Assembly: GCA_037446635.1 (NCBI GenBank)
Contig: JBBIIG010000014.1
Location: 16,294 to 80,293, forward strand
Source of the DNA: a bacterium
Lineage (GTDB): Bacteria > Zhuqueibacterota > Zhuqueibacteria > Oceanimicrobiales > Oceanimicrobiaceae
Reading direction: 5' to 3'
Length of the DNA stretch: 64,000 nucleotides
Both the position numbers and the translations under genes were made by a program. Positions 179-42,868 of this stretch are shown here, piece after piece. The notes below the pieces were generated by a model. It did no database searches and had not been told where the DNA came from. It saw only the letters and a program-made list of their open reading frames with translations. Position 1 is the stretch's first letter; every line of letters begins with the position of its first letter.

Positions 179-259
179 TGGATTAATGAAAGACAAACCG
201 CATGAATCCACCGATCCATATATCCATTAATCCTTTGGAAATTTAGAGGAGAAAAGACG

Positions 260-1246
260 ATGACACTCAAAGTAATCTTCTTGACGGGTTTCATTATGGT
301 GTTGGCTTCCGCGCTCTACGCACAGTCAAAAGATTTGCCAGCGGAGTACAAACAGATTCTGCCGCGCGGACAAATTGCGGCCATCACGCAGCCGCAATTT
401 GTTCCAGCCGACAAAGCCGAAATCGCCGATGACTCGTGGGTGCTGGGCGTGGTCATCGACGGTCAGGCACGGGCGTACAGCTTGAATCTGTTGAACAGCC
501 ATGAAGTGGTGAACGACCAAATCGGAGAGCAGGCTTTTGCCGCGGTGTGGTGACCGCTGGCTAATACCGGCGTCGTGTACGACCGCAAATATCAAGATAA
601 AACCATCACGTTTGAAGCTTCGGGCGGGCTGCTAAACAGCGCGTTGGTCATGCAGGATCGCGAGACCGATAGTTACTGGCCGATTATGCAGGGCGAGGCC
701 ATCGCCGGCGAAATGAAGGGGACGAAGTTAAAAGAAATGCCGGTCGCTGAAAAAGTCCAGTGGAAGGATTGGGTCAAAAAGCACCCGAACACATTGGTGC
801 TCTCGGTGAACGGCCGCGAAGACGGCTTCAATCCCTACAAAACATATTTTGAATCGAAAGAAGGCTTTCGCGGGACGGCGGCAAAGGATCGGCGTTTGGC
901 AACTAAGGAGCCGATCTTCGCTTTTCATTATCAAGGAAAAAGTTACGCGGTACCTTATAAGAATTTTGAGGGCGGCAAAACCTTCGATTTGAATGGTGTG
1001 AAACTCTTTCTCTATCGTCCGCCAAAATCCGAAATTTTCTACTCCACCGCGGCCTTTGCGGCTGCGGGTGATGGGTTTAAGATCGAAAACGGAAAGTGGT
1101 ACCACGTGGATTCGGGCTGCCAGTTTAATCCGAATTCGGGTTCATTTGAAAAGGGACCGGGAGCGTGCCCGGAGAAATTTCATGGGTTTGATACCTTTTG
1201 GTACAATTGGAGTTTGTCCAATCCGGATACCCAACTTTTACGGTAA
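260..1246 (+). CDS. Secreted DUF3179-family protein with an in-frame TGA at 551-553 (candidate selenocysteine). The ORF track splits it into 260-553 and 575-1246.
   Basis: RBS AGAGGAG 8 nt before ATG 260. Signal peptide MTLKVIFLTGFIMVLASALYAQS. Both ORF-track pieces are in the same frame and only the TGA separates them. The read-through sequence ...FAAVW-U-PLANTGVVYDRKYQDKTITFEASGGLLNSALVMQDRETDSYWPIMQGEAIAG... matches what I recall of DUF3179 (..AVTYCPLCNSGIVFDR..FGVSGLLYNSNLVMYDRETxSLW..GEAIAG..), with the TGA at the first Cys. Confidence 0.55.
570..586 (+). promoter_or_regulatory. Candidate bacterial SECIS-like hairpin, 17 nt downstream of the in-frame UGA
   Basis: GGCGUCG-UGUA-CGAC(C)GC gives a 6-bp stem with a 1-nt bulge. 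The tetraloop contains GU, and the loop G is 24 nt after the UGA. Weak, and not validated against a SECIS model. Confidence 0.3.
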
Positions 1247-1354: not shown

Positions 1355-1978
1355 ATGAAAGCATTCAGGACTTTGGTCGTATTCGCTCTGGCAACGGTTG
1401 TAGCTTTTGCTCTGGTCAATCTTTCAGCGCAGGAAACCAAGCATCAGCCCAAACCGCTCACCGAAGAGCAAAAAATGATGATGAAAAACATGGCCATGAA
1501 AAACATGGATAAGTTCATGGCCAGCAAAGACGCCATGATGCAGCTACCTCAGCATCTGAAAAAAACCCAGGACGAATCTATTAAGCTGGGGGAAGAATTA
1601 TTTAATTCGAAGACCGCGCTCAGCACCAATGGCCAGGCTTGCGCCAGTTGTCACCCCGGCGGCGGCACCACCGGCGGCGAAGCCGAGACGCCTATGGCCA
1701 GCGAGGTGACGGGCAAACCGTATAAACTGCCCATCCCGACTCTCATTGGCTCGGCGGCCACGTTTCCGAAATACAAAATTCCTAATGATGCGGTTATTAC
1801 CGTGGGCGATATGGCCAACAACTGCATCATGATGTTTATGGCTGCGCAGCCGCTTGACCCCAAAAGCAAAGAATTTAAGGCGTTGTCTGCTTACGTGACC
1901 TCCTTGAGCAACGAGGACAAAGTGTCGGTGGGAGAAGTGCCAGAGATGATGAAAAAAATGATGGGCGAAAAGAAGTAG
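1355..1978 (+). CDS. Mono-heme c-type cytochrome with a Met-rich N-terminal segment, secreted
   Basis: RBS GGGAGGG. Signal peptide. Single CASCH heme motif. MMMKNMAMKNMDKFMASKDAMM is a Met-rich stretch resembling Cu(I)-binding Met motifs. Confidence 0.85.
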   Translation: MKAFRTLVVFALATVVAFALVNLSAQETKHQPKPLTEEQKMMMKNMAMKNMDKFMASKDAMMQLPQHLKKTQDESIKLGEELFNSKTALSTNGQACASCHPGGGTTGGEAETPMASEVTGKPYKLPIPTLIGSAATFPKYKIPNDAVITVGDMANNCIMMFMAAQPLDPKSKEFKALSAYVTSLSNEDKVSVGEVPEMMKKMMGEKK

Positions 1979-2058: not shown

Positions 2059-3072
2059 ATGAAGATTGTCAATATCTGTTTACTATTTGTGGTAGTAAGT
2101 TTGTCTATTGTAACCGCGCAAGATGGTGAAGATGCTGCGCGCTGGAAGAACACGCCGCAGGAGGCTTTCTTAAACAGCGAAATTGTTCAAACCTATCAAT
2201 GCACCAGTTGCCACACCATCGCCGAGCGCGGGGGTACCGTCGGGCCGATCCTGAATCAAGTGGGCAATCGCCGAACCGAAGAGTGGCTGCGCCGCTGGCT
2301 GGCCGACCCGCAGCAGGTTAAGCCCGGAACCAAGATGCCCAAGTTTGATTTCACGCCCGAGCAATTGGATGCGGTGGTCGGCTATTTGACCAACATGAAA
2401 AAAACGCTCCGCACCGATGCCATTCTCGCGCAAAACAAATCTTTAATCGAAACAGGCGAGATGCTGTTTGAGGATTACGATTGCCTGGCCTGCCATCGCG
2501 TGGGCTCCGACGGCAGATTTATCGGGCCGGACTTAACCTGGGTTGGGTTGCGAAAGACCGCGGCCTGGGAAAAAACCTGGCTGGCCGATCCCCCCGGATT
2601 TAAGCCCGATACCTTCATGCCTAATTTTCATATCCCGCAAAAGGGAATAGAAGCGCTGGCGGAGTATCTGCATAACCAGCAAGGACAGAAAAATGCCGAT
2701 TCGCAGGAGTGGGAATTTCGCACCAACTTCTTTCTGGGAAACAGCGATCGCGAACGCGGCGAATTGGTATTCAAGCGCTTTGCGTGTTGGGCGTGCCACG
2801 GTGAGAGCGGCAGCGGCGGCATCAAAAATCCCAACATGGCGCCCGACGAAATGATGCCGCCGCTGAAAGAAGCCGCGGTGAAATATACCGAAGCCGAGCT
2901 TTTGGCGCGGCTGAAAACGAAAACCGCGCCCCGGTCGCTGGATGGCAATAAACCAGCTCCGCCATTTTTCTGTCCGGACTATGGCAATTATATGGAAACT
3001 TCCGAATTCAGCGACCTTTACGCTTATTTGAAATCATTCGCGCCCAAGAAACTCAAGTGGCGGTTTAATTAA
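2059..3072 (+). CDS. Tri-heme c-type cytochrome (three class-I cytochrome c domains), secreted
   Basis: Signal peptide. Three CXXCH motifs (CTSCH, CLACH, CWACH), each followed by a Met-containing distal region. Confidence 0.85.
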   Translation: MKIVNICLLFVVVSLSIVTAQDGEDAARWKNTPQEAFLNSEIVQTYQCTSCHTIAERGGTVGPILNQVGNRRTEEWLRRWLADPQQVKPGTKMPKFDFTPEQLDAVVGYLTNMKKTLRTDAILAQNKSLIETGEMLFEDYDCLACHRVGSDGRFIGPDLTWVGLRKTAAWEKTWLADPPGFKPDTFMPNFHIPQKGIEALAEYLHNQQGQKNADSQEWEFRTNFFLGNSDRERGELVFKRFACWACHGESGSGGIKNPNMAPDEMMPPLKEAAVKYTEAELLARLKTKTAPRSLDGNKPAPPFFCPDYGNYMETSEFSDLYAYLKSFAPKKLKWRFN

Positions 3073-3172: not shown

Positions 3173-3280
3173 TAACGCAAACCTCAGGTTTGCCCGCCTG
3201 CCTAAGGCCTCTGGCGGGCAGCTCAAAGCGGAGCTTTGAGTTACATATATAAAATTATCCAAGCTAAAAGGAGCAGAATC

Positions 3281-4012
3281 GTGTCAGTCAGGAAAGTTTT
3301 TTCGATAGCTTTGCTAGCGGTAGTTGCGCTCATCTATTTGGCCAATCATCGTACCTCCGAGGCCAGTTTAAACGGCGGCGCCGTCACCGGCGTGGTGCGA
3401 TTTCCTGGGGAGTATCCGGATCGCGAAAAGATCATGATCACCAAAGACCAGCAGGTTTGCGGCGCGTTTCAGTACTCGGAGATTTTTGTGGTGGCGGAAG
3501 AAAACCACGGGTTGAAAAACGTCGTGATTACGCTGGTAAATGTCAAAGGTGGGCAAGCGCCGGCCGCGGTAACGGCCACCATCGATCAGAAAGGGTGCCG
3601 CTATATGCCCCACGTGCAGGCCGTGCCGGTCGGCAGCAATTTGGAAATTCTGAATAGCGATGGCATCTTGCATAACATTCATGCCTATTACAATGGACTG
3701 GATCCTAAAAATACCGTCTTTAATAAAGCCCAACCTAAGTTTCTCAAAAAAATCACTCATACGCTGGATAAGGCCGGGATGTACTACTTCAAGTGCGATG
3801 TGCACAGTCACATGAGCGCGTATGTGGCGGTGATGGATCACCCGTATTATGCGGTGAGCGATGACTACGGTAAATTTACGATCGATAACGTGCCTCCCGG
3901 TTCCTATAAAATTCAAGCCTGGCATGAGGCTCTCGGCGTTTTAGAGAAGAACGTTACCGTCGCGGCTGGCAAAACCACTGATGTAAATTTTGATATTTTG
4001 CCAAATGAGTAA
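3281..4012 (+). CDS. Cupredoxin-like (type-1 copper) protein, secreted
   Basis: GTG 3281 is preceded by AAAAGGAGC (the ORF track starts at 3236). Hydrophobic N-terminus. Candidate ligands: His in ILHNIHAYY, then Cys, His and Met in FKCDVHSHM (C-x2-H-x2-M, amicyanin-like spacing). Confidence 0.7.
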   Translation: MSVRKVFSIALLAVVALIYLANHRTSEASLNGGAVTGVVRFPGEYPDREKIMITKDQQVCGAFQYSEIFVVAEENHGLKNVVITLVNVKGGQAPAAVTATIDQKGCRYMPHVQAVPVGSNLEILNSDGILHNIHAYYNGLDPKNTVFNKAQPKFLKKITHTLDKAGMYYFKCDVHSHMSAYVAVMDHPYYAVSDDYGKFTIDNVPPGSYKIQAWHEALGVLEKNVTVAAGKTTDVNFDILPNE

Positions 4013-4033: not shown

Positions 4034-4521
4034 ATGAAAAAGCTGTTCTTCTATTTTTTAGCCATTTCTAGTTTATTGTTAGTCTCGTGCAATAGTGACC
4101 AACCGTTGGGCAGCAATGACGGGGCAAATCCGAGTAAGTCGGGTTTCGGGGTCTCCGGACTTTTGTTTGAGAACAACCTGGTGATGTGGGATCGCGAGAA
4201 CCAAGGCAGCCGCAGCGAATTATTTCCACAAATGTATTTCACCCGCGCCGACGCCGCCGACTTTCCCACCTGGGACACATTTCCTTCCAACCAGATGGTT
4301 TCCGGCGGTCCGCCACGTGATGGCATACCTGCGCTGACCAATCCCAGAATCGTATCCTCAACTTCATAAGTAACGCGAATCCATTTCAGATGACTGATAA
4401 CGAGACCAACAGCGTTTGGAACATCAAAGGCGAGGCGATTTCCGGTGCACTCTCCGGCGTGAAGCTGACACAGATTCCCGCATACAATGTCAAATCTCAA
4501 TATCGTCGTTCCGATTGCTGA
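4034..4521 (+). pseudogene. Scrambled and truncated DUF3179-related remnant; the lipoprotein-like ORF 4034-4369 plus a frameshifted tail at 4390-4521
   Basis: ORF 4034-4369 has a lipobox (LLVSC). It then carries GFGVSGLLFENNLVMWDRENQGS (the DUF3179 central motif) before SGGPPRDGIPALTNPRIV (the DUF3179 N-terminal motif) and stops. A different frame at 4390-4521 encodes NETNSVWNIKGEAISGALSGVKLTQIPAY (the DUF3179 C-terminal region). Motif order is permuted, the CPLC region is missing, and the 3' end overlaps the convergent gene. Confidence 0.45.
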
Positions 4522-4907
4522 ATGGGGAGGTCGTTGGCGCTCATGTCTCTTCGCCTCATGAGACCCTCCTCATCGAACTCCCAGTGCTCGTTGCCGTGCG
4601 TACGATACCATTGACCGGTATCGGCATCGCGCCATTCGTATTCAAAGCGCACGGAAATGCGGTTATCTGTGTAAGCCCAGAGTTCCTTCATGAGGCGGTA
4701 ATCCAATTCTTTCGCCCACTTTCGTTTCAAAAACTCTTTAATCGCTTCTCTCCCGGTGAAAAATTCAGTGCGGTTTCGCCATTGGGAATCTTCCGTATAA
4801 GCGAGCACAACCCGTTCGGGGTCGCGGGTATTCCAGGCGTCTTCAGCAGCCTTTACTTTCGCCCGTGCGGTCTCTGCAGTGAATGGAGGTTTTATCGGTT
4901 GCTTCAT
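4497..4907 (-). CDS. DUF1348-family protein (NTF2-like fold)
   Basis: 136 aa. ...[43 protein letters not shown]...[40 protein letters not shown] matches my recall of the DUF1348 consensus. Confidence 0.8.
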
Positions 4908-4942: not shown

Positions 4943-5275
4943 TTATAAAAGCGTTTTCAGCCTCTCTGTCAACTCACTTTTTGAAATCACCCCGTTTAGT
5001 CGGTCGATCACTCTACCATTTTTGAAAAAGAGCATGGTTGGGATACATTCAATCCCAAATGTCGTGGCGATCGCAGGGTACTCGTCCGCGTTTATTTTCG
5101 CAAAATTAGCTTTACCAGAGAATTCCAGCGCCAAATCTTCGACGATGGCTGTCATGATTTCAGAAGCCCCACTCCAACTGGTCGAGAATAGCACCAGAAC
5201 CGGGAGTACGTTTTCGAGGACCCGGTGATTGAAATTCTTGCTCGTTAATATGATCGTTCTATTGGTTCTCGGCAT
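4943..5275 (-). CDS. Thioredoxin-fold protein lacking the catalytic cysteines (WSGAS instead of WCGPC)
   Basis: Aligns to thioredoxin (..[40 protein letters not shown]..). The likely start is the internal Met at 5273-5275; the ORF track's GTG at 5323 is less likely. Confidence 0.7.
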
Positions 5276-5295
5276 CGATGTTTTTATGTCATTCG

Positions 5296-5898
5296 TTACA
5301 ACCGAATTCTTGCTGGGCAACACGATCTTAAAATATCCGGGTTTAATTTAGCGATTTCTTCGGCAATTTCTTCACTGGTGAATCGGGGTGTGATATGCTG
5401 CGGGCAGTTCCAATCAAAAGCCTGGATTTTGAAAATGATCAGACGCTCAATGTTGGCTTTGTAATCGGGCATCTTCAGTTCTTTTAACAATTCAGCATTC
5501 TGCTCGGCGTCGATCATTTCTGATTCAGCCCATATTTTCAGACGTTGTTGAGAAGGATAGTCCATTAAGAATAGTGACGCTTTACGGCTCGAATTGATGT
5601 TGCCAACACTGATGTATTGCATGTTGCCGCGAAAATCGGCATAGCCGAGCGTGGTGCTATCGATTACTTTCAGAAATCCTTTCGGACCACCGCGGAATTG
5701 CACATACGGCCAGCCGTTTTCGCCAACGGTAGCCATGTAAAAGCTGTCCCTTGATTCAATAAAAGAAATTTCTCTGTTTGTTAGAACATATTGGTTGCCG
5801 GACGCTTCCACACGGGCGTAGGATTGGCGAGAGCCGTACCGTTGCTGAGCCCTTCTAACGCTATCGGTGAAAGCAAACTTGGTGAAATTCTGGTTCAT
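5296..5898 (-). CDS. Pyridoxamine 5'-phosphate oxidase-like FMN-binding (split-barrel) protein
   Basis: 200 aa. ..FYMATVGENGWPYVQFRGGPKGFLKVID..GNMQYISVGNI..ASLFLMDY is typical of PNPOx-like flavin-binding proteins. Confidence 0.7.
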   Translation of the reverse strand: MNQNFTKFAFTDSVRRAQQRYGSRQSYARVEASGNQYVLTNREISFIESRDSFYMATVGENGWPYVQFRGGPKGFLKVIDSTTLGYADFRGNMQYISVGNINSSRKASLFLMDYPSQQRLKIWAESEMIDAEQNAELLKELKMPDYKANIERLIIFKIQAFDWNCPQHITPRFTSEEIAEEIAKLNPDILRSCCPARIRL

Positions 5899-13667: not shown

Positions 13668-14663
13668 TTGAACAAAATAACGCTTTTGCTTTTCATTAGC
13701 CTCGCCGGTGCCGCCGGTCTTCTTTCCTGCACAAAATCCCCCGCACATTCCAACGATTTGACGAGAAGAATTCAGTTCTCGTATGCCTTCACCGTGAAAA
13801 ACATCCCGCCAGATGCCAAGCGCGTTGACATCTGGGCGCCCGTTCCGCAATCGGATGCGTGGCAAAGCATTTCGAACCTCGAAGTTAGGTGCCAAGCTCC
13901 GTACTCGTTCGAGACCGAGCCGGAATATGGCAACTCGATTCTTCGGGTATCCGCGAATGGCAGCGTTCCCGACAGCCTTTCGGTGGTGATGAATTTTTCG
14001 GTGACGAGGACGGGCTACCACCTTTTGAAAGGCGAGGATGAATCTGTGGGGGCGGTTTCCGAAAAAATCCGCCAGCGTTTTCTCGCTCCGGATCGCTTGA
14101 TTCCCATCGACGGCAAAATCGCGGAGGAAGCAAAAAAAGTCGTGCGCGAGGACATGCCGCCGCTCGAAAAAGCCCGCGCCATTTATGATCACGTCGCCCG
14201 CACGCTCAAGTATGACAAAAGCGGCGCCGGCTGGGGCCTCGGGGACGCGCTCTACGCTTGTGATGTCCGCGCCGGCAATTGTACCGATTTCCATTCGCTG
14301 TTTATCGGCATGGCGCGCGCCAGCGGCATCCCCGCGCGTTTTGTGATTGGATTTCCGCTGCCGGAAGATGCGGCCGTAGGCGAGATTCCCGGCTATCATT
14401 GCTGGGCGGAATTTTATATCGATGGCAGGGGATGGCTGCCGGTGGATGCTTCGGAAGCTAGCAAACATCCGGAAAAATGGCATGATCTCTTCGGCGGTCT
14501 CGATCCTCACCGTGTCCAGTTCACAGTTGGCCGCGACATTCAAATCCCGTCTTTAGCTCAGTCTGAGCCCCTCAATTATCTCATTTATCCCTATGTGCTG
14601 ATCGATGGCCAGCCACATGAGAAGGTAGAGCGGCAGTTCCGGTTTTCGGAGTTGACGAATTGA
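13668..14663 (+). CDS. Transglutaminase-like cysteine-protease-domain lipoprotein
   Basis: TTG start with RBS GGGAGA. Lipobox LLSC. ..YACDVRAGNCTDFHSLFIGMARASGIPARFVIGF..GYHCWAEFYIDGRGWLPVDASE has the Cys-His-Asp transglutaminase-core signature. Confidence 0.85.
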   Translation: MNKITLLLFISLAGAAGLLSCTKSPAHSNDLTRRIQFSYAFTVKNIPPDAKRVDIWAPVPQSDAWQSISNLEVRCQAPYSFETEPEYGNSILRVSANGSVPDSLSVVMNFSVTRTGYHLLKGEDESVGAVSEKIRQRFLAPDRLIPIDGKIAEEAKKVVREDMPPLEKARAIYDHVARTLKYDKSGAGWGLGDALYACDVRAGNCTDFHSLFIGMARASGIPARFVIGFPLPEDAAVGEIPGYHCWAEFYIDGRGWLPVDASEASKHPEKWHDLFGGLDPHRVQFTVGRDIQIPSLAQSEPLNYLIYPYVLIDGQPHEKVERQFRFSELTN

Positions 14664-14675
14664 ACGCGGAGTGAA

Positions 14676-15425
14676 TTGTTGACATCAAAAAAAATCACCC
14701 TGACGGCGCTCCGAAAAGCGCTGCGCCAGGTTGCGGAAAAAGAGCGGGTGCCGGTGCTCATGCGCTTTTTCAAAACCGGAAAAGGAGAATACGGCTACGG
14801 CGATGTTTTTTTAGGCGTCACGGTGCCGAACAGCCGCAAGGTCGCCAAGCAATTCGCTGCCCTTTCATTTCCCGATCTCGAGACACTGCTGCACTCGAAA
14901 TTCCACGAGGAGCGGCTTGTGGCTTTGCTGATTTTGGTTAAAAAATTTGCTCGTGCGGATGAGTCAACGAAGAAGCAGATATACCAGTTCTATCTCGCAG
15001 AGACAAAATGGATAAACAATTGGGATTTAGTCGATCTTTCTGCCGAATACATCATCGGGGAATATTTGCTTTCACATCCGGCGGAAAATGGGGGCATACT
15101 CGCTGAGCTCGCCGTTTCGCCCAATCTTTGGGAGCGGCGCATTGCGGTGCTTTCGACCTTCGCTTTCATCAAAGCCGGCCGGGCAGAAGAGACGATGCGC
15201 ATCGCGGAGATGTTGCTCTCTGATAAGCATGATCTCATTCACAAAGCCGTTGGCTGGATGCTGCGCGAAGTGGGCAAGCGTGTTTCGAAAGAAGAAGAAA
15301 AGAAGTTTCTCGATGCTCATGCGCACCGCATGCCGCGCACCATGCTGCGCTACGCCATCGAGCATTTCCCAGAGTCTGTGCGCAGAAAGTACCTGTCCAT
15401 GAAAGCGGCCAGAGCTTCCAACTAA
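14676..15425 (+). CDS. DNA alkylation repair enzyme (AlkD/AlkC-like HEAT-repeat glycosylase family)
   Basis: ..FFKTGKGEYGYGDVFLGVTVP..WINNWDLVDLSA..LWERRIAVLSTF.. is typical of the DNA_alkylation family. Confidence 0.8.
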   Translation: MLTSKKITLTALRKALRQVAEKERVPVLMRFFKTGKGEYGYGDVFLGVTVPNSRKVAKQFAALSFPDLETLLHSKFHEERLVALLILVKKFARADESTKKQIYQFYLAETKWINNWDLVDLSAEYIIGEYLLSHPAENGGILAELAVSPNLWERRIAVLSTFAFIKAGRAEETMRIAEMLLSDKHDLIHKAVGWMLREVGKRVSKEEEKKFLDAHAHRMPRTMLRYAIEHFPESVRRKYLSMKAARASN

Positions 15426-20985: not shown

Positions 20986-22647
20986 ATGAAGCGTTGGACA
21001 TTTGTTTTGTTAATCCTGTTATTTCCGGCTGTGCTTGCCGCACAAGGCGTCGTGCAGGTGTTTGATGCGGATATAGTTGGGGATGTGCTTTGGACTAAGA
21101 ACAACACCTACGTTTTGAACGGTTTGGTATTCGTGGAGGACGGCGAGACCTTGACCATCGAAGCTGGCACGGTGGTGAAAGGGAAGCCGGGGCAAGCGGA
21201 GGCGGCGAGTGCGTTAATTGTGGCGCGCGGCGGGAAGATTTTTGCGGAGGGCACGCCGACGCAGCCGATAATTTTCACCGCGGAGGCGGACGACGTGACA
21301 GACCCGAACGATTTGCCGGCGAACACGCGCGGCTTGTGGGGCGGCGTGATTATCTTGGGCCGCGCGGTGATCAACGTGGCAGGCGGGGAGCAGGACATCG
21401 AAGGCATTCCGGTGACGGAGCCGCGGGGGGTTTATGGCGGCACGGACGACGATGACAACAGCGGAGTTTTTCGGTACGTATCGATTCGCTACGGCGGCAC
21501 CAACATCGGGGCCAACAACGAGATCAACGGCTTGACGATGGGCGCGGTGGGGCGCGGGACGACAATTGAATTTGTAGAAGTGTTCAACAACGCGGACGAC
21601 GGCTACGAGTGGTTTGGGGGGACGGTGAACACGCGTTATTTAGTGAGCGCCTTCAACGATGACGACGGTTTTGATTATGATGAAGGGTGGCGCGGCCACA
21701 ACCAATTCTGGTTTTTGATTCAGGCGGAAGACGCCGGCGGTTCGGGCGGTGAGCATGACGGCGGCACGACGCCGGAGGATGGCTTGCCGTTTGCGATCCC
21801 GTTGATTTACAATGCGACGTATATTGGCAGCGGCGCCAGTTCAGCTAACACGCGCAGTGACTTTGCTTTGAACATTCGGGACAACGCGGGCGGGAAGTAT
21901 TACAACAGTATTTTCACGGATTTCTTTGGGCGGGCGGTTCAGATTGAAGATTTGGCGAGTGGGGAAGACAGTCGGGCGCGTTTGGACGCCGGCGATTTGG
22001 TGCTGCAAAACAACATTTGGTTTGGGTTTGGCGCCGGCAGCGCGACCACGGATTTGTTTGCGCAGGATTTCGTGCATACATACATGACCGACGCTGCCAA
22101 CAACAATCGCTTCGTCGATCCCATGCTGAATGGCGTCAGCCGCGCCGCCGATGCCGGCCTTGATCCACGTCCCGATGATGCAAGTCCAGCGTTGAGCGGA
22201 TTCGTTCAGCCGCCGACTGACGGTTTTTTTGCGCCCGTCGATTATGTCGGAGCGTTTGGCGACCAAAACTGGGCAGCCGACTGGACGTTCCTTTCAGAGG
22301 CCGGCTATCTGACGACCGCTGGCGCCCGTACGCCCAACGTGGTCACTTCAGTGGAGGAAGAGCGAATTCCAAACGTTCAGCCCACCAGATTTACGCTCAG
22401 CCAGAATTATCCGAATCCGTTCAACCCGACCACCAACATCAACTATGATTTGGTAACGACTACCCAGGTTCGGTTGACGGTGTACAACCTGCGCGGCCAG
22501 AAAGTCGCCACGCTAGTGGATGGTGTGCGCCCTGCTGGCAGCTACACCGTTACCTGGGATGCCGCAAATCTTTCGAGCGGAATATACATCTACCGTTTGG
22601 AAGCTGGCAAAAATGCCGTCTCGCGTATGATGACGCTTTTGAAGTAA
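20986..22647 (+). CDS. T9SS-sorted secreted protein (Gly/Asp-rich, beta-helix-like passenger plus a T9SS C-terminal sorting domain)
   Basis: Strong RBS GGAGAGGAGG. Signal peptide. The C-terminus ..FTLSQNYPNPFNPTTNINYDL..VRLTVYNLRGQKVATLVDGVRPAGSYTVTWDAANLSSGIYIYRLEAGKNAVSRMMTLLK is a classic Por_Secre_tail domain. Confidence 0.8.
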   Translation: MKRWTFVLLILLFPAVLAAQGVVQVFDADIVGDVLWTKNNTYVLNGLVFVEDGETLTIEAGTVVKGKPGQAEAASALIVARGGKIFAEGTPTQPIIFTAEADDVTDPNDLPANTRGLWGGVIILGRAVINVAGGEQDIEGIPVTEPRGVYGGTDDDDNSGVFRYVSIRYGGTNIGANNEINGLTMGAVGRGTTIEFVEVFNNADDGYEWFGGTVNTRYLVSAFNDDDGFDYDEGWRGHNQFWFLIQAEDAGGSGGEHDGGTTPEDGLPFAIPLIYNATYIGSGASSANTRSDFALNIRDNAGGKYYNSIFTDFFGRAVQIEDLASGEDSRARLDAGDLVLQNNIWFGFGAGSATTDLFAQDFVHTYMTDAANNNRFVDPMLNGVSRAADAGLDPRPDDASPALSGFVQPPTDGFFAPVDYVGAFGDQNWAADWTFLSEAGYLTTAGARTPNVVTSVEEERIPNVQPTRFTLSQNYPNPFNPTTNINYDLVTTTQVRLTVYNLRGQKVATLVDGVRPAGSYTVTWDAANLSSGIYIYRLEAGKNAVSRMMTLLK

Positions 22648-27659: not shown

Positions 27660-28910
27660 ATGAAACAGATCGTCTTTTTTTTGATTGTGCTTGGTTGGTT
27701 GGTGTGGGTTGAGGACATCTCGGCGCAAGCCGGCTGGATTTTCAAAACGCCGATGCCCACGGCGCGCGCCGGCATTTGCGCCGCGGTGCTCGACGGCAAA
27801 GTCTATGTGATGGGCGGCCGCAGCAGCAGCGGCCAGGTGCTCGATTTGGTGGAGCGATACGACCCGCAAAACGACCGTTGGGAAAGTTCGCCGCGTTTGC
27901 GGGATGGGCGCGAGAACGCCGCGGCGGTGGTTTATGATGGCACCATCTTTGTGCTCGGCGGCCGCGATCACGAAGGAGAAGTCATAAAGAAGGTAGAATT
28001 TTTTAATCACAATAGAAATGAATGGGAGGGCTTTGATGATATGTTAGAAAAGCGGGAGGGGCTCGGCGCCGTAGTGGTGAATGGTCTTCTGTATGCCGTG
28101 GGCGGTGGCGATGAACACGAAGTGTTGTTGGATGGCGTGGAATTTTTTGATCCAAGCCAGCGGAAATGGATTAAAGCGAATGACTGGCAGCTGATTTTGC
28201 CGGCGGCATCGCTGGTCGCGGTGGCGGTGCGGGATTCCGCCTTCACCATCGGCGGATTTGGGGGCGTGTTGGGACCGCTGAATATTGTGCAGCGGTACTA
28301 CGCCGGCTTGGAAACGGCGGTGCGTGCCTCCCTGCTGATTGGGCGCGGGGGGTCGGCTGTCGTCGCCCGCGGCGACTCCATTTTCGTTTTGGGAGGAAGC
28401 GGATTGTTGGGCACGTTAAATTCCGTTGAGGTGTTCATCCCGAAATTCAATCGCTGGGAAAGCTTCTCATCTCTGCAAACCGCCCGCGAGAACTTCGCCG
28501 CGGTGGCGGTGGATCACACGCTGTTCGTCTTTGGCGGCCGCGGCGCCAACGGCCACGCCCTCAACTCCGTGGAAGCGTATGAGCTCGTGACCGCGGTGGA
28601 AGACGAGCCGCCGATTTTGCCGCTCGGTTTTGCGCTGGAGCAAAACTATCCCAATCCCTTCAATGCTGGCACGAAGATCGTTTTTCGTGTTCCAGCCTCT
28701 AACAGTACGGCGGCGATTCGATTAGAGATTTTTAATGTGCGCGGCGCGCGCGTGGCAACTTTGGTCGATGGGCCGCGGCTGCCAGGCGAGTACGAAGTGT
28801 TTTGGGACGGCGCTGATTTTCAAAAGCGGCCGGTTGCCAGCGGAATTTATGTGTACATATTAGAAATGGGCGGACAACGCATCGCCAAAAAAATGATCCT
28901 GAGCCGATGA
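27660..28910 (+). CDS. Kelch-repeat protein with a T9SS C-terminal sorting domain
   Basis: Signal peptide. Repeated Kelch motifs (..AAVLDGKVYVMGGR..RYDPQNDRWE..). C-terminus FALEQNYPNPFNAGTKIVF..IYVYILEMGGQRIAKKMILSR. Confidence 0.85.
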   Translation: MKQIVFFLIVLGWLVWVEDISAQAGWIFKTPMPTARAGICAAVLDGKVYVMGGRSSSGQVLDLVERYDPQNDRWESSPRLRDGRENAAAVVYDGTIFVLGGRDHEGEVIKKVEFFNHNRNEWEGFDDMLEKREGLGAVVVNGLLYAVGGGDEHEVLLDGVEFFDPSQRKWIKANDWQLILPAASLVAVAVRDSAFTIGGFGGVLGPLNIVQRYYAGLETAVRASLLIGRGGSAVVARGDSIFVLGGSGLLGTLNSVEVFIPKFNRWESFSSLQTARENFAAVAVDHTLFVFGGRGANGHALNSVEAYELVTAVEDEPPILPLGFALEQNYPNPFNAGTKIVFRVPASNSTAAIRLEIFNVRGARVATLVDGPRLPGEYEVFWDGADFQKRPVASGIYVYILEMGGQRIAKKMILSR

Positions 28911-29701: not shown

Positions 29702-29998
29702 CCGGAGTGAAACGCTTTAGCGTTGCAGTTTCCCTGTGGAGTGCCAAACTTTAGTTGGCCTACGTCACCTAAAGCTTGACACTCCTCGCCTGCGCAAACT
29801 TTTCTCACGCCATTGCAAACCCTGCGCATACCAATTTTTCAACGACTCAATTGGGCGCGTTAAATCACGAATCGTAAACCATCACAAGATTACCACTTAA
29901 CGCCCCTCGATTGTGACGCGACCGCGCTGGCATCGCCTTTGCGTGATGAACGTCCAAACCAATTCACCCAATTTATTTCAAAAATAGGAGGATTTGTC

Positions 29999-32740
29999 AT
30001 GCCAACGGTACGGTTTACAAAATCAATTTTATGGACGTTGCTGGCGAGCGCGATATTGCTGGCCGCAACGAACCTGTGGGCGGCGGGAGAATTCGTTCTA
30101 TCCACGCGCTCCGATTTTTCCACCAATGATCGCATTTTCACCCGCGACGACACGCTGTTCATGAAAGTCATTGTGCCCAATATCGATGTCACTGAAATTC
30201 ACGACAACGAATTTCGTTTGCACGCTGAGAGCGGCGGCGGAAATTTCGAGGGCAAATTCACCAACCATCTGAACGGCACCTTCACCGCGAAGCTGGCGCT
30301 AAAAAACGCCGATCCCGGCGAAGCTAACTGGGAATGGCGCGGCCGCATCCGCGATCGCCACGGCCGCGAATTTGAAGCCGAAGTGAATCTGCAAATCGTC
30401 GCCAGCATCAATGGCGATATCGAAGTGAGGCTCAAGGGTAAGATTGAGGCACTGGGTGCGGATTTTGTCGTTGTCCAAAAAACGAAAGTCTTTGTGGATG
30501 CCCATACCCAAATCGTTGATGAAAATGGACAGGCGTTGACGTTCGTCGATTTGCGCGTCGGGCAGTCGGTGACAGTGACCGCGGTACGGAAAGAGAACGG
30601 CGATCTACTGGCGCGGCGCATCGCGTTTGTTTCGCGTTCGGAAAACGAACTGGAGTTGAAAGGCGTCATCGAAAGCATCGACGAAAGCAGTCTCGTGGTG
30701 CTTGGTCTCACGTTCAAGGTCGATGCCAACACCGAAATTGAAGACCACGACAACAACCCGATTTCGTTGAATGATTTATCGGTTGGCCAGTTCGTGGAAA
30801 TCAAAGCGAAAATTCAGAGCGACGGCTCGCGGCTGGCGCTGCGCATCCGCGTTGAAGATCACTCCGGTGAAATCGAATTGAAGGGGAAAATTGAAGCGCT
30901 GGGCGACCACAGTTTGGTTGTCTCCGGCGTGACGTTTGAAGTTACAGCGAATACCGAAATCCTCGGCGACGATAACCAGCTTATTTCGTTTGCCGATTTG
31001 CAGGTCGGCTTTTTGGTGGAGGTGAAAGGCATTCCAACTCAAGGGGAAACGATCATGGCAACGCGCATCAAAGTGGAGGGAGAATTATTTGTCGATGATG
31101 AAATCGAGTTTACCGGGCTGGTGTTCGAGGTCGGCGATCATTTCATCGTGGTTTCCGGGTTGCGATTTGAAGTGAGCGCCGCCACCGTGATTTTAGATGA
31201 CGACAATCATCCCATTACTTTGGCCGACATTCGCGCCGGCGTGTTTGTGGAAATTCGCGCGGACGTTGCCGCCGATGGCTCATTGCAAGCGACCAAAATT
31301 AAAATCGAAGATCGCTTCGACGATGAGGTCGAATTGACCGGCGAAATCGAAAGCATCGGAGAAAACACCCTGACGGTCGATGGCAAAGTTTTTGTGGTCA
31401 ACGAAAGCACGGTGGTGCTGGACAACCGGAACCTGCCGATTCCCTTCAGTGCGCTGCAGGTTGGGATGCTCGTCGAAGTGCGCGCTGATTTGCAGTTGGA
31501 CGGCTCGCTGCTGGCGACGCGCATCAAAATCGAAGATCGCGATGACGACGAAGTGGAGCTGACGGGCCGCATTGAGGCGATTGTTGGCCAAACGCTGGTG
31601 GTCGGCGGCTTCACGTTCACCGTGGACGCCAACACCGTTGTTCTCGACAACCGCAATAACGCAATCGCCTTTGCCGACCTGCGCGTTGGGTTGATTGTGG
31701 AGATTCGCGCCGATAAGCAATTGGACGGAACGCTGCTCGCCACCCGCATCAAAATTGAAGACCGCATGGCAGACGAAGTGGAAATCACCGGATTGATTGA
31801 AGCCCTCACCGAGTCCGCGATCACCGTCGCAGGCCAAACCTTCCTGTTCACGGAAAACACCATCGTGCTGGATAATAACAATTTGCCCATTCCGCGCGCG
31901 AATCTTTCGGTGGGGCAGCGGGTGGAAATCAAAGGCGATCTTTTGGCGGACGGCACGCTCATCGCGCTGCGAATAAAATTAGAGGACGGCGCCAACAACG
32001 AAGTGGAGGTTGAAGGGCCAATCTCCGCGGTTGGTCTCGGCACGCTTGCGGTTCTGGAAAATAATTTCATCGTCAACCTCGGCACCGAGATTCTCGACAT
32101 CAACAATTTGCCAATCACATTGGGCGATTTGTTAGTTGGACAGGTCGTGAAAGTGCGCGCTGTGCTGGAACTGAACGGCACGCGCATCGCTACGCGCATT
32201 CAGTTGAAAAACGTGGTTGTGATGTCAGGCAATATCGCGCAGGTGAACGTGAATAGCGTGGTGATTTTGAATAAAGTTGTGAAGATTGATGCCAACACGT
32301 TGATTCTGGCCGAACAGAATCGCGCCATCGCTTTTGCGGATTTGAAAGTCGGCGACCGCGTGGAAGTGCGCGGTGAGCCGCAGCCCAACGATGAAGTAAA
32401 CGCGACGAAAATCAAAACTCAGCAGCCGAATGTGATTACCGGTATCGGCGATTCTGATGCGGGTTCCAACCTTCCCAAGCAGTTTGCGCTGGAGCAGAAT
32501 TATCCCAATCCCTTCAACCCGAGCACGAACATCAGTTACAATCTCGCGCGCGACGGCCGGGTTCGTCTCGCGGTGTACAACTTGCTGGGTCAGCGAGTCG
32601 CCACGCTGGTGGACGAGGTTCGCCCGGCTGGGAGTCACACTTTAACCTGGAATGCCGCGAATCTTCCCAGCGGCATTTACATCTACCGTCTGGAAGCCGG
32701 CGGCAATGTGTTGTCGCGGCGGATGACACTTTTGAAGTGA
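29999..32740 (+). CDS. Large T9SS-sorted protein built from ~10 tandem DUF5666-like repeats
   Basis: RBS AGGAGGA before ATG 29999 (the ORF track starts at 29939). The repeat unit is ..EVELTGxIEAIGxxTLVVxGxTFxVxANTxVLDxxNxPIxFADLxVGxxVEVRAxxQxDGSLLATRIKIED. C-terminus FALEQNYPNPFNPSTNISYNL..GIYIYRLEAGGNVLSRRMTLLK. The antisense ORFs across the repeats look spurious. Confidence 0.8.
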   Translation: MPTVRFTKSILWTLLASAILLAATNLWAAGEFVLSTRSDFSTNDRIFTRDDTLFMKVIVPNIDVTEIHDNEFRLHAESGGGNFEGKFTNHLNGTFTAKLALKNADPGEANWEWRGRIRDRHGREFEAEVNLQIVASINGDIEVRLKGKIEALGADFVVVQKTKVFVDAHTQIVDENGQALTFVDLRVGQSVTVTAVRKENGDLLARRIAFVSRSENELELKGVIESIDESSLVVLGLTFKVDANTEIEDHDNNPISLNDLSVGQFVEIKAKIQSDGSRLALRIRVEDHSGEIELKGKIEALGDHSLVVSGVTFEVTANTEILGDDNQLISFADLQVGFLVEVKGIPTQGETIMATRIKVEGELFVDDEIEFTGLVFEVGDHFIVVSGLRFEVSAATVILDDDNHPITLADIRAGVFVEIRADVAADGSLQATKIKIEDRFDDEVELTGEIESIGENTLTVDGKVFVVNESTVVLDNRNLPIPFSALQVGMLVEVRADLQLDGSLLATRIKIEDRDDDEVELTGRIEAIVGQTLVVGGFTFTVDANTVVLDNRNNAIAFADLRVGLIVEIRADKQLDGTLLATRIKIEDRMADEVEITGLIEALTESAITVAGQTFLFTENTIVLDNNNLPIPRANLSVGQRVEIKGDLLADGTLIALRIKLEDGANNEVEVEGPISAVGLGTLAVLENNFIVNLGTEILDINNLPITLGDLLVGQVVKVRAVLELNGTRIATRIQLKNVVVMSGNIAQVNVNSVVILNKVVKIDANTLILAEQNRAIAFADLKVGDRVEVRGEPQPNDEVNATKIKTQQPNVITGIGDSDAGSNLPKQFALEQNYPNPFNPSTNISYNLARDGRVRLAVYNLLGQRVATLVDEVRPAGSHTLTWNAANLPSGIYIYRLEAGGNVLSRRMTLLK

Positions 32741-41947: not shown

Positions 41948-42868
41948 GTGAGAAATATTCAAATTACAACCGTATTGATTTGCTCGCTCGGCGTTTTTTT
42001 GAACTCAGCCTTTGCCCAAACCGGCAGCGCCGGCGCCACCGGGCTGGCGTTTCTGAAATTGGGCGTTGGCGCGCGCGCTAACGGCATGGGGGAGGCCTTT
42101 GTCGCGGTTGCCAATGACGCCGCCGCCACGTTCTGGAATCCGGCCGGTCTTTCCCAACTCGAACGTTCGCATTTCACCTTCACGCACAGCGAATGGATTC
42201 AGGATATTTCCAGCGAGTTTCTGGCGTTGGCGTTTCCGGCTTTTGGCGGCGTGACCGGCTTCAGCGTTTACGTCAACAATGTGGGCGGCATTGAACGCCG
42301 CGTCAACCCTTCTGAAGAACCGCTTGGAACCATTGACGCCAACGATGTTGCTCTGGGCGTCTCGTATGGCCGCTCGTTGGGTTCATCCATGCAGGCCGGC
42401 ATCACGGTAAAATATCTTTACGAGAAAATTTACCTGGAAAGCGCTTCGGGGTATGCTTTTGATTTCGGCCTGAATGTTCAACCTTTTGGCAGCGCGTTAA
42501 ATTTGGCGGTCGCGGCGCAGAATTTAGGCTCAATGAATGAGCTGCTGGCCGAGTCCATCGATTTGCCGAAAACCCTGCGCTTCGGCGCCGCTTATTCGTT
42601 TCCGCTGGCCGCGCTCGATGGCGCGGTGGTGCTGGCTGCAGAGGGCGTCAAAGTTGTGGAGAACGATCTGCGCGGCAGCTTCGGCGCCGAAGTGCAATTG
42701 AAAAAAATGCTGGCTTTACGCTTGGGATACCAGAGTGGCTACGAGGATAGAAGCTTGGCCGGCGGGTTTGGTTTGTCCTTCCAGCGCTACCACCTCGATT
42801 ATGGCTACACCCCGGTTGGTTCGAATTTAGGCGATACCCATCGTTTTTCCTTCGGCCTGGATTGGTAA
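41948..42868 (+). CDS. PorV/PorQ-family T9SS-associated outer-membrane beta-barrel protein (paralog 2)
   Basis: Signal peptide. ..GATGLAFLKLGVGARANGMGEAFVAVANDAAATFWNPAGLSQL.. is a textbook PorV/PorQ N-terminal signature. Ends ..HRFSFGLDW. Confidence 0.8.
   Translation: MRNIQITTVLICSLGVFLNSAFAQTGSAGATGLAFLKLGVGARANGMGEAFVAVANDAAATFWNPAGLSQLERSHFTFTHSEWIQDISSEFLALAFPAFGGVTGFSVYVNNVGGIERRVNPSEEPLGTIDANDVALGVSYGRSLGSSMQAGITVKYLYEKIYLESASGYAFDFGLNVQPFGSALNLAVAAQNLGSMNELLAESIDLPKTLRFGAAYSFPLAALDGAVVLAAEGVKVVENDLRGSFGAEVQLKKMLALRLGYQSGYEDRSLAGGFGLSFQRYHLDYGYTPVGSNLGDTHRFSFGLDW

Follow-up and report, generated by a model that had tools for sequence, protein, structure and literature searches.

Reading frame, annotation, and surroundings of the gene

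The window analysed here is a 64,000-nucleotide (64-kb) stretch of a bacterial contig. Its forward strand holds a single frame, read directly from the sequence, which starts at ATG 260, meets TGA 551–553, and ends at TAA 1244–1246 with no other in-frame stop. The ORFs 260–553 and 575–1246 are one gene, and this TGA is its sole interruption. With the stop replaced by Cys, the 328-aa product matches PF11376 (DUF3179) in Pfam with an E-value of 4.7e-55 and a score of 187.5 bits against a cutoff of 27. The match is full-length and above the gathering threshold, and its alignment runs unbroken across the TGA, from residues 37–324 to profile positions 2–292 of 292. An earlier note on this DNA had described one gene split only by the TGA, and the single frame and the unbroken profile match bear this out. 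In tblastn, the matches from 80 genome loci cover residues ~1–328 in one frame. None of the NCBIfam models matches the product. The N-terminus looks like a signal peptide, as the same note had read it, and the homologues have equivalent hydrophobic N-termini; the product is probably exported via a Sec-type signal peptide. A Shine-Dalgarno site precedes ATG 260, while inspection of the sequence upstream of GTG 575 revealed no such site. The features of the locus are collected in Table 1.

Table 1. Positions of the gene, its elements, and its neighbours (window coordinates unless a relative locus is named)
Feature	Position	Strand	Remarks
Shine-Dalgarno GAGGAG	246–251	+	8 nt 5′ of ATG 260; read directly from sequence
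Complete CDS of the proposed selenoprotein, DUF3179 member	260–1246	+	328 codons including UGA-98; stop TAA 1244–1246
Probable Sec-type signal peptide MTLKVIFLTGFIMVLASALYA	260–322	+	Lys4, hydrophobic core, ASA/LYA small-residue sites; inferred from sequence
UGA, very probably read as selenocysteine; residue 98, motif W-U-P-L-A-N	551–553	+	TGA at the same column in 146/160 loci
SECIS-like hairpin, family-wide register	567–585	+	567–573 pairs with 579–585; apical loop CGUGU 574–578
SECIS-like hairpin, alternative register (that of the earlier note)	570–586	+	GCGUCG/CGA(C)CGC, 6 bp, UGUA loop, one bulged C; local MFE −5.9 kcal/mol
GTG inside the hairpin loop, second Val codon; predicted false start of a 223-aa 'protein'	575–577	+	P0001 and dozens of database entries
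Two extra Cys codons, C287 ('DSGC') and C303 ('GACPE')	1118–1168	+	1118–1120 and 1166–1168; only in some Sec forms
SoxA/TsdA-type cytochrome c	1355–1978		Downstream gene
Three-domain cytochrome c	2059–3072		Downstream gene
CarboxypepD_reg protein	3236–4012		Downstream gene; Copper-bind match below Pfam threshold
Second DUF3179 gene, canonical type, degraded	4034–4500	+	N-terminal motif SGGPPRDGIPALTNP
DUF1348 gene	4497–4907	−	Overlaps the second DUF3179 gene
Thioredoxin-family protein	4943–5323	−	PF00085, E 6e-19
Type IX secretion features	20986–22647, 27660–28910, 29939–32740, 41948–42868	+	
Divergent ECF sigma / anti-sigma genes in relatives	L001 2091–2690; L002 2175–2774; L161 1035–2340	−	

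In public databases, the only stored product of the window gene is P0001 (NCBI, 223 aa, 100% identical), which starts at GTG 575. Dozens of entries of ~223 aa begin here with MYDR..., and the closer homologue group (56–70% identical, about 200–235 aa) begins just after the TGA column, mostly with 'MYDR...' as well. The truncated entries start at the GTG of the hairpin loop or at a nearby CTG or TTG. The same split is found in locus L161, where a 99-aa and a 223-aa call both match PF11376. Judged from where they begin, the homologues of about 200–235 aa are gene-caller truncations at the Sec codon.

TGA is used as a normal stop by 13 of the 41 window ORFs of at least 200 aa, which agrees with the remark of the earlier note that many genes here end on it, and Pfam domains finish shortly before several of these other TGA stops. 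Since TGA is a normal stop in so many ORFs of the window, a global reassignment of TGA is excluded. The 64-kb window contains no credible second selenoprotein or UGA read-through candidate. One same-frame pair on the forward strand, 13668–14663 and 14676–15425, with TGA and 12 nt in between, was considered and rejected; it consists of two unrelated complete genes, for a transglutaminase-like core and a DNA alkylation repair enzyme. Neither selA, selB, and selD nor tRNA-Sec is present within the 64-kb window, a scope too small to argue against Sec decoding.

Three genes for two cytochromes c and a CarboxypepD_reg protein follow downstream. The cytochromes c and a 'cupredoxin' had been taken as a sign of a periplasmic redox role. 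However, the Copper-bind match is below the Pfam threshold, and the cytochrome c and CarboxypepD_reg/Copper-bind genes are found within 3 kb of the gene in 0 of 80 relatives, so that the argument from a 'periplasmic redox operon' is not supported. All-against-all clustering of flanking ORFs gave no universal partner; only zf-HC2 anti-sigma-like and ECF sigma genes came out, at a minority of loci. Specifically, in the closest relatives a divergent ECF sigma factor (Sigma70_r2/r4_2) and an anti-sigma gene are located about 300 nt upstream of the Sec-DUF3179 gene (L001, L002, L004–L006, L008, L010, L013, L015, L111, and L161). The window starts 259 nt 5′ of ATG 260, and the position that the sigma gene takes in the relatives lies outside it. 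Further loci have zf-HC2 anti-sigma-like ORFs near the Sec-DUF3179 gene. Directly 3′ of this gene, a 1-Cys peroxiredoxin (AhpC-TSA and 1-cysPrx_C) is encoded in L161 (3695–4192, minus strand), L105, and L106.

The window has other features of its own. The ORF of the second, canonical-type DUF3179 gene ends after 111 aa and misses the C-P-L-x region, and a later motif, TDNETNSVWNIKGEAISG, is found in another frame; it probably reflects either the remnant of a pseudogene or a fault of the assembly. In the thioredoxin-family protein encoded nearby, W-S-G-A-S replaces W-C-G-P-C, both redox Cys being changed to Ser. The type IX secretion features are C-terminal Por_Secre_tail or CHU_C sorting domains in a 553-aa protein, a Kelch-repeat protein, and a 933-aa protein with nine DUF5666 repeats, together with a PorV-like outer-membrane protein. 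Taken with the nearest DUF3179 relatives, these features agree with an organism of the FCB group, e.g., KSB1 or Calditrichota.

The TGA column and the downstream hairpin

We inspected the codon at the aligned column across 160 related loci, half genomic and half metagenomic, and found 146 TGA, 11 TGC/TGT, and 1 TGG. The 80 genome loci, each from a different species, have 78 TGA, one TGC (L070), and one TGG (L042); the 80 metagenome loci have 68 TGA and 10 Cys codons, with 2 unmatched. The metagenome scan was seeded on purpose with Cys forms, and Sec forms still dominate it. Hence, the WxPLAN clade is Sec-dominant, with about 146 Sec against 11 Cys among the sampled loci, or ~90% Sec. The 80 genomes span Calditrichota, candidate division KSB1, several Acidobacteriota classes, Gammaproteobacteria, Latescibacterota, Krumholzibacteriia, Polyangiaceae, and Pirellulaceae, and UGA and hairpin are arranged in the same way in the closest relatives, which are KSB1 and Calditrichota MAGs.

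The TGA of the window gene lies in the local context AAVW-[TGA]-PLANTGVVYDR. Full-length homologues (about 320–345 aa, 45–55% identical) have Cys at exactly the TGA column, in AVVW-C-PLAN. A canonical DUF3179 paralogue located beside the Sec-type gene in L046 has VVSF-C-PLT-GSGLVYD, which aligns residue for residue with AAVW-U-PLA-NTGVVYD. The conserved Cys of DUF3179 lies in the C-P-L-x loop after the 'ND' strand, and the window gene has UGA at this column. The earlier placement of the TGA on a conserved DUF3179 Cys column is thus confirmed by the homologue alignment, with TGA in about 90% of relatives, and Cys and Sec orthologues, which it had proposed to look for, do share the column. The mean identity between the window product and 134 Sec-form relatives is 69% over the 70 aa 5′ of the TGA versus 54% downstream.

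The column is not absolutely fixed. In L042 (around 3300), it is TGG, giving Trp in AAVWWPLAN, and five full-length homologues (P0035, P0044, P0055, P0081, and P0098) have Ser in VWSPMAN or VWSPIAN.

Comparison across the family supports a conserved SECIS-like hairpin downstream of the UGA. In the family-wide register it occupies 16–34 nt after the UGA and has a 7-bp stem and a 5-nt loop. The stem was assessed by pairing alignment columns 17–23 with 29–35, which correspond to window 567–573 and 579–585, with slid-register and shuffle controls. Among 74 genome-derived sequences, the stem is 90.0% paired versus 20–50% in slid registers, and its covariation is 0.129 against a shuffled mean of 0.053, a value reached by 0 of 500 shuffles. 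The 63 metagenome sequences, from which the window was left out, behave alike: 91.6% paired, covariation 0.193 against 0.100, and again 0 of 500 shuffles; over both sets, the slid controls are 20–53% paired. Compensatory double changes occur at three pairs, namely 18:34 (GC to UA), 20:32 (CG to GC), and 21:31 (CG to UA/AU).

These changes can be followed in the codons. The stem and the G-U apical loop are encoded in Thr/Ala-Gly/Ala-Val-Val-Tyr-Asp/Gly/Ser-Arg codons. In the stacked DNA, the Val-Val-Tyr codons GUC GUG UAC (572–580) hardly vary at the wobble base, while the flanking wobbles vary freely, with third-position entropies of 0.2–0.6 bit versus 1.0–1.9 bit. The codons flanking the loop covary as GCC...GGC, GCU...AGC, GGC...GCC, and GGA...UCC. 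Pair 18:34 ties the wobble base of the Thr/Ala codon ahead of these to the CGN-to-AGR change in the following Arg codon, and the two covary. As the hairpin is written into codons, the RNA constraint fixes the wobble positions in Sec forms and likewise the Val-Val-Tyr residues. The stem cells are paired to 91% in 130 distinct Sec forms versus 61% in 11 Cys forms, the loop block GTCGTGTAC is present in 111 of 130 Sec forms versus 2 of 11 Cys forms, and Val-Val-Tyr is kept as protein in 129 of 130 versus 6 of 11.

The register in the window itself is ambiguous. G575 and U576, which are 25–26 nt from the U of UGA, are invariant and lie in or next to the apical loop in both registers. The hairpin at 570–586 that the earlier note had pointed out does exist and overlaps the conserved SECIS-like hairpin; as a register, it reaches 81.5% pairing over the family, but its covariation does not exceed that of shuffles, and the family instead follows 567–573/579–585. 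Still, the window's own sequence folds at lower energy in the 570–586 register, because the family register carries two mismatches there among its seven pairs (C568·C584 and G570·A582).

A covariance model built from the metagenome set only, without the window, has its sole strong match in the 64 kb at 551–595 (58.9 bits, E about 1e-13), the next-best match scoring 13 bits. A sequence-only model gives 46.6 bits, which means that much of the covariance-model score is coding-sequence similarity. Rfam, searched with the whole window at gathering thresholds and with 400–800 at E up to 10, gave no SECIS and no other credible family. The single-sequence fold of 545–620 (76 nt) is no better than shuffled sequences (z = −0.45), and RNAalifold at defaults with the 74 sequences missed the hairpin, returning an unconvincing 4-bp structure without covariation. 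The evidence for the hairpin is hence comparative rather than thermodynamic.

Following established bacterial Sec biology, UGA 551–553 would be decoded as Sec by a SelB·GTP·Sec-tRNA(Sec) complex, and this complex would be recruited by the SECIS hairpin immediately 3′ in the mRNA.

Alternative readings of the TGA

The TGA might have arisen from TGC through an error in sequencing or assembly, or it might be an inactivating mutation private to this genome, in which case the gene would be a pseudogene. The assembly is MAG-like, the second DUF3179 gene in the window is truly degraded, and one relative has TGG at the column, all of which fit such an origin. However, the same-column TGA is present in 146 of 160 independent loci; moreover, both halves of the gene are conserved as protein, the upstream half more so, and the downstream hairpin is specific to Sec forms. 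We consider this origin exceedingly improbable, and the caveats about sequencing error and pseudogene made in the earlier note are refuted by the recurrence of the TGA together with the Sec-specific hairpin. If the UGA were instead a real stop, as it is elsewhere in the window, the locus would give two products, a 97-aa secreted peptide and a 223-aa protein re-initiated at GTG 575. This is how gene callers annotate it, in P0001 and in the fragments of L161. Yet GTG 575 lacks a Shine-Dalgarno sequence ahead and serves as the second Val codon of the hairpin loop, which is invariant; in this single-domain family, the 223-aa fragment would lose the first ~60 positions of the profile along with the signal peptide, and the Cys-form homologues are single full-length proteins. 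Two separate products are, to our judgement, highly improbable.

The UGA could also be read through without Sec, either by near-cognate insertion of Trp or Cys or in a lineage that has lost its Sec machinery and can bear a low level of read-through. Termination at UGA-C is weak, and this general property would favour such read-through, as would the Trp of L042 and the Ser of five homologues at the column. No Sec machinery is encoded within the 64-kb window, a scope too small to weigh either way. On the other hand, a SECIS-like hairpin with an invariant loop G-U is kept in the window, which would be unexpected without SelB, and the closest KSB1 and Calditrichota MAG relatives keep the same arrangement. 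We regard read-through without Sec as quite improbable. Three hallmarks of a bacterial selenoprotein gene are found together at this locus: an in-frame UGA on the Cys of the homologues that is kept as UGA in orthologues, same-frame protein conservation on both sides of it, and a SECIS hairpin on its 3′ side with a conserved loop G(U), the exact register of which is ambiguous in the window. Taken together, the comparative sequence data indicate that TGA 551–553 is very probably a genuine selenocysteine codon, and we are highly confident that 260–1246 encodes one exported DUF3179-family selenoprotein.

Protein fold, possible function, and comparison with known systems

The closest full-length Cys homologue, P0002, was used to describe the fold. 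Its AlphaFold (AF2) model has a pLDDT of 90.7 and a pTM of 0.86 and is mostly β. The Cys ends the strand 95–102, ahead of a tight P-L-A-N turn and the next strand, and the N-terminus is modelled, at low confidence, as a helix that stands apart from the fold. The model has Rieske-like fold matches, e.g., 2qpz_A, 3gce_A, 3dqy_A, and 1vm9_A, and the predicted likeness is at the fold level only. PDB sequence-profile searches gave no support for a Rieske link, and Foldseek against PDB returned nothing significant. Different from a Rieske [2Fe-2S] domain, the WxPLAN clade is devoid of the CxH...CxxH ligands; it has one conserved Cys/Sec column, and position +3 is Ala instead of His. Nor does the product resemble the thioredoxin-fold UxxC/CxxU oxidoreductases, as the fold is mostly β and there is no partner Cys at +3. 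By sequence and model, the product would have an all-β fold with one Rieske-like domain lacking Rieske ligands, preceded by the signal peptide, and Sec-98 would be located at the end of a β-strand where the tight P-L-A-N turn starts.

The Sec-98 column is the only universally conserved Cys/Sec in the clade. The motif had been given earlier as CPLC; the clade reads C/U-P-L-A, so there is no CxxC-type partner Cys. Of 138 Sec forms, 38% have a Cys at the position of C287 and 37% at that of C303; among 10 Cys forms, none has either. The two residues may be joined in a structural, periplasmic disulfide. A role as obligate resolving Cys was considered for them and rejected, as they are present in only about 38% of Sec forms. 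With low confidence, we suggest that Sec-98 could serve in the cell envelope either as a single nucleophile with redox activity (selenenic acid or selenenylsulfide chemistry) or in binding a metal, perhaps within an ECF-sigma stress regulon like that of the closest relatives. The presence of Ser in five homologues and Trp in one at the Sec column weakens a strictly redox or metal role. A broader picture, which we offer tentatively and hold to be rather doubtful, is that the W-U-P-L-A-N clade is a distinct, Sec-dominant (~90%), and widespread exported subfamily, which would use a Rieske-like fold without ligands for a single-Sec redox or metal reaction in the envelope under ECF-sigma control, and in which the SECIS loop would be fixed in the Val-Val-Tyr codons, the RNA dictating the protein.

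The family hairpin can be compared with the SECIS of Escherichia coli fdhF, to which SelB binds directly 3′ of the UGA. It differs in its shorter 7-bp stem, its 5-nt loop C-G-U-G-U, and the lack of a conserved bulged U in the family register; no Rfam model matches it. The two are alike in that the hairpin is inside the CDS, starts about 16 nt after the UGA, and has an apical-loop G-U at +25/+26 from the U of UGA. In this, G575/U576 of the window lie close to the position of their counterparts in the fdhF loop, G23/U24.

DUF3179 is an already known selenoprotein family, and the window gene is a further mis-annotated member of it. DUF3179 (PF11376) with the motif UxxC/T is listed among prokaryotic selenoprotein families by Zhang et al. 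2022 (PMC9312934) and again in a 2026 AEM review (PMC13188914). Both reviews credit the study of the Olavius symbiont metagenome (Zhang & Gladyshev 2007 NAR, PMC1976440), where TGA-containing families that have Cys homologues and SECIS-like stem-loops were reported as new. In NCBI, too, the Cys-form members P0036 and P0084 of the WCPLAN clade are already called 'DUF3179 domain-containing (seleno)protein'. The proposal of a new selenoprotein family in the earlier note is overtaken by these two listings and by the NCBI names. Recognition of the UGA as Sec would restore the full-length exported protein, and its value is mainly in annotation, with dozens of orthologues truncated alike. What is new here are small details of the clade: the U-P-L-A motif, the Sec share of about 90%, and the predicted Rieske-like fold without Rieske ligands. 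The Sec dominance, the lone Sec/Cys without a CxxC partner, the Rieske-like fold, and the ECF sigma/anti-sigma neighbours in close relatives are clues for biochemistry.

Compared with the published DUF3179 selenoproteins, the window gene belongs to the same Pfam family, has Sec at the same Cys column, has Cys homologues, and has a bacterial-type stem-loop after the UGA. The published form is UxxC/T, with Cys or Thr at +3, and Thr is what the canonical paralogue in L046 has; in contrast, the window gene and its whole clade read U-P-L-A, and 58 of the 59 homologues that were aligned have Ala at +3. The clade also differs from the published form in the strong dominance of its Sec form, at roughly 146 Sec versus 11 Cys among the loci sampled.
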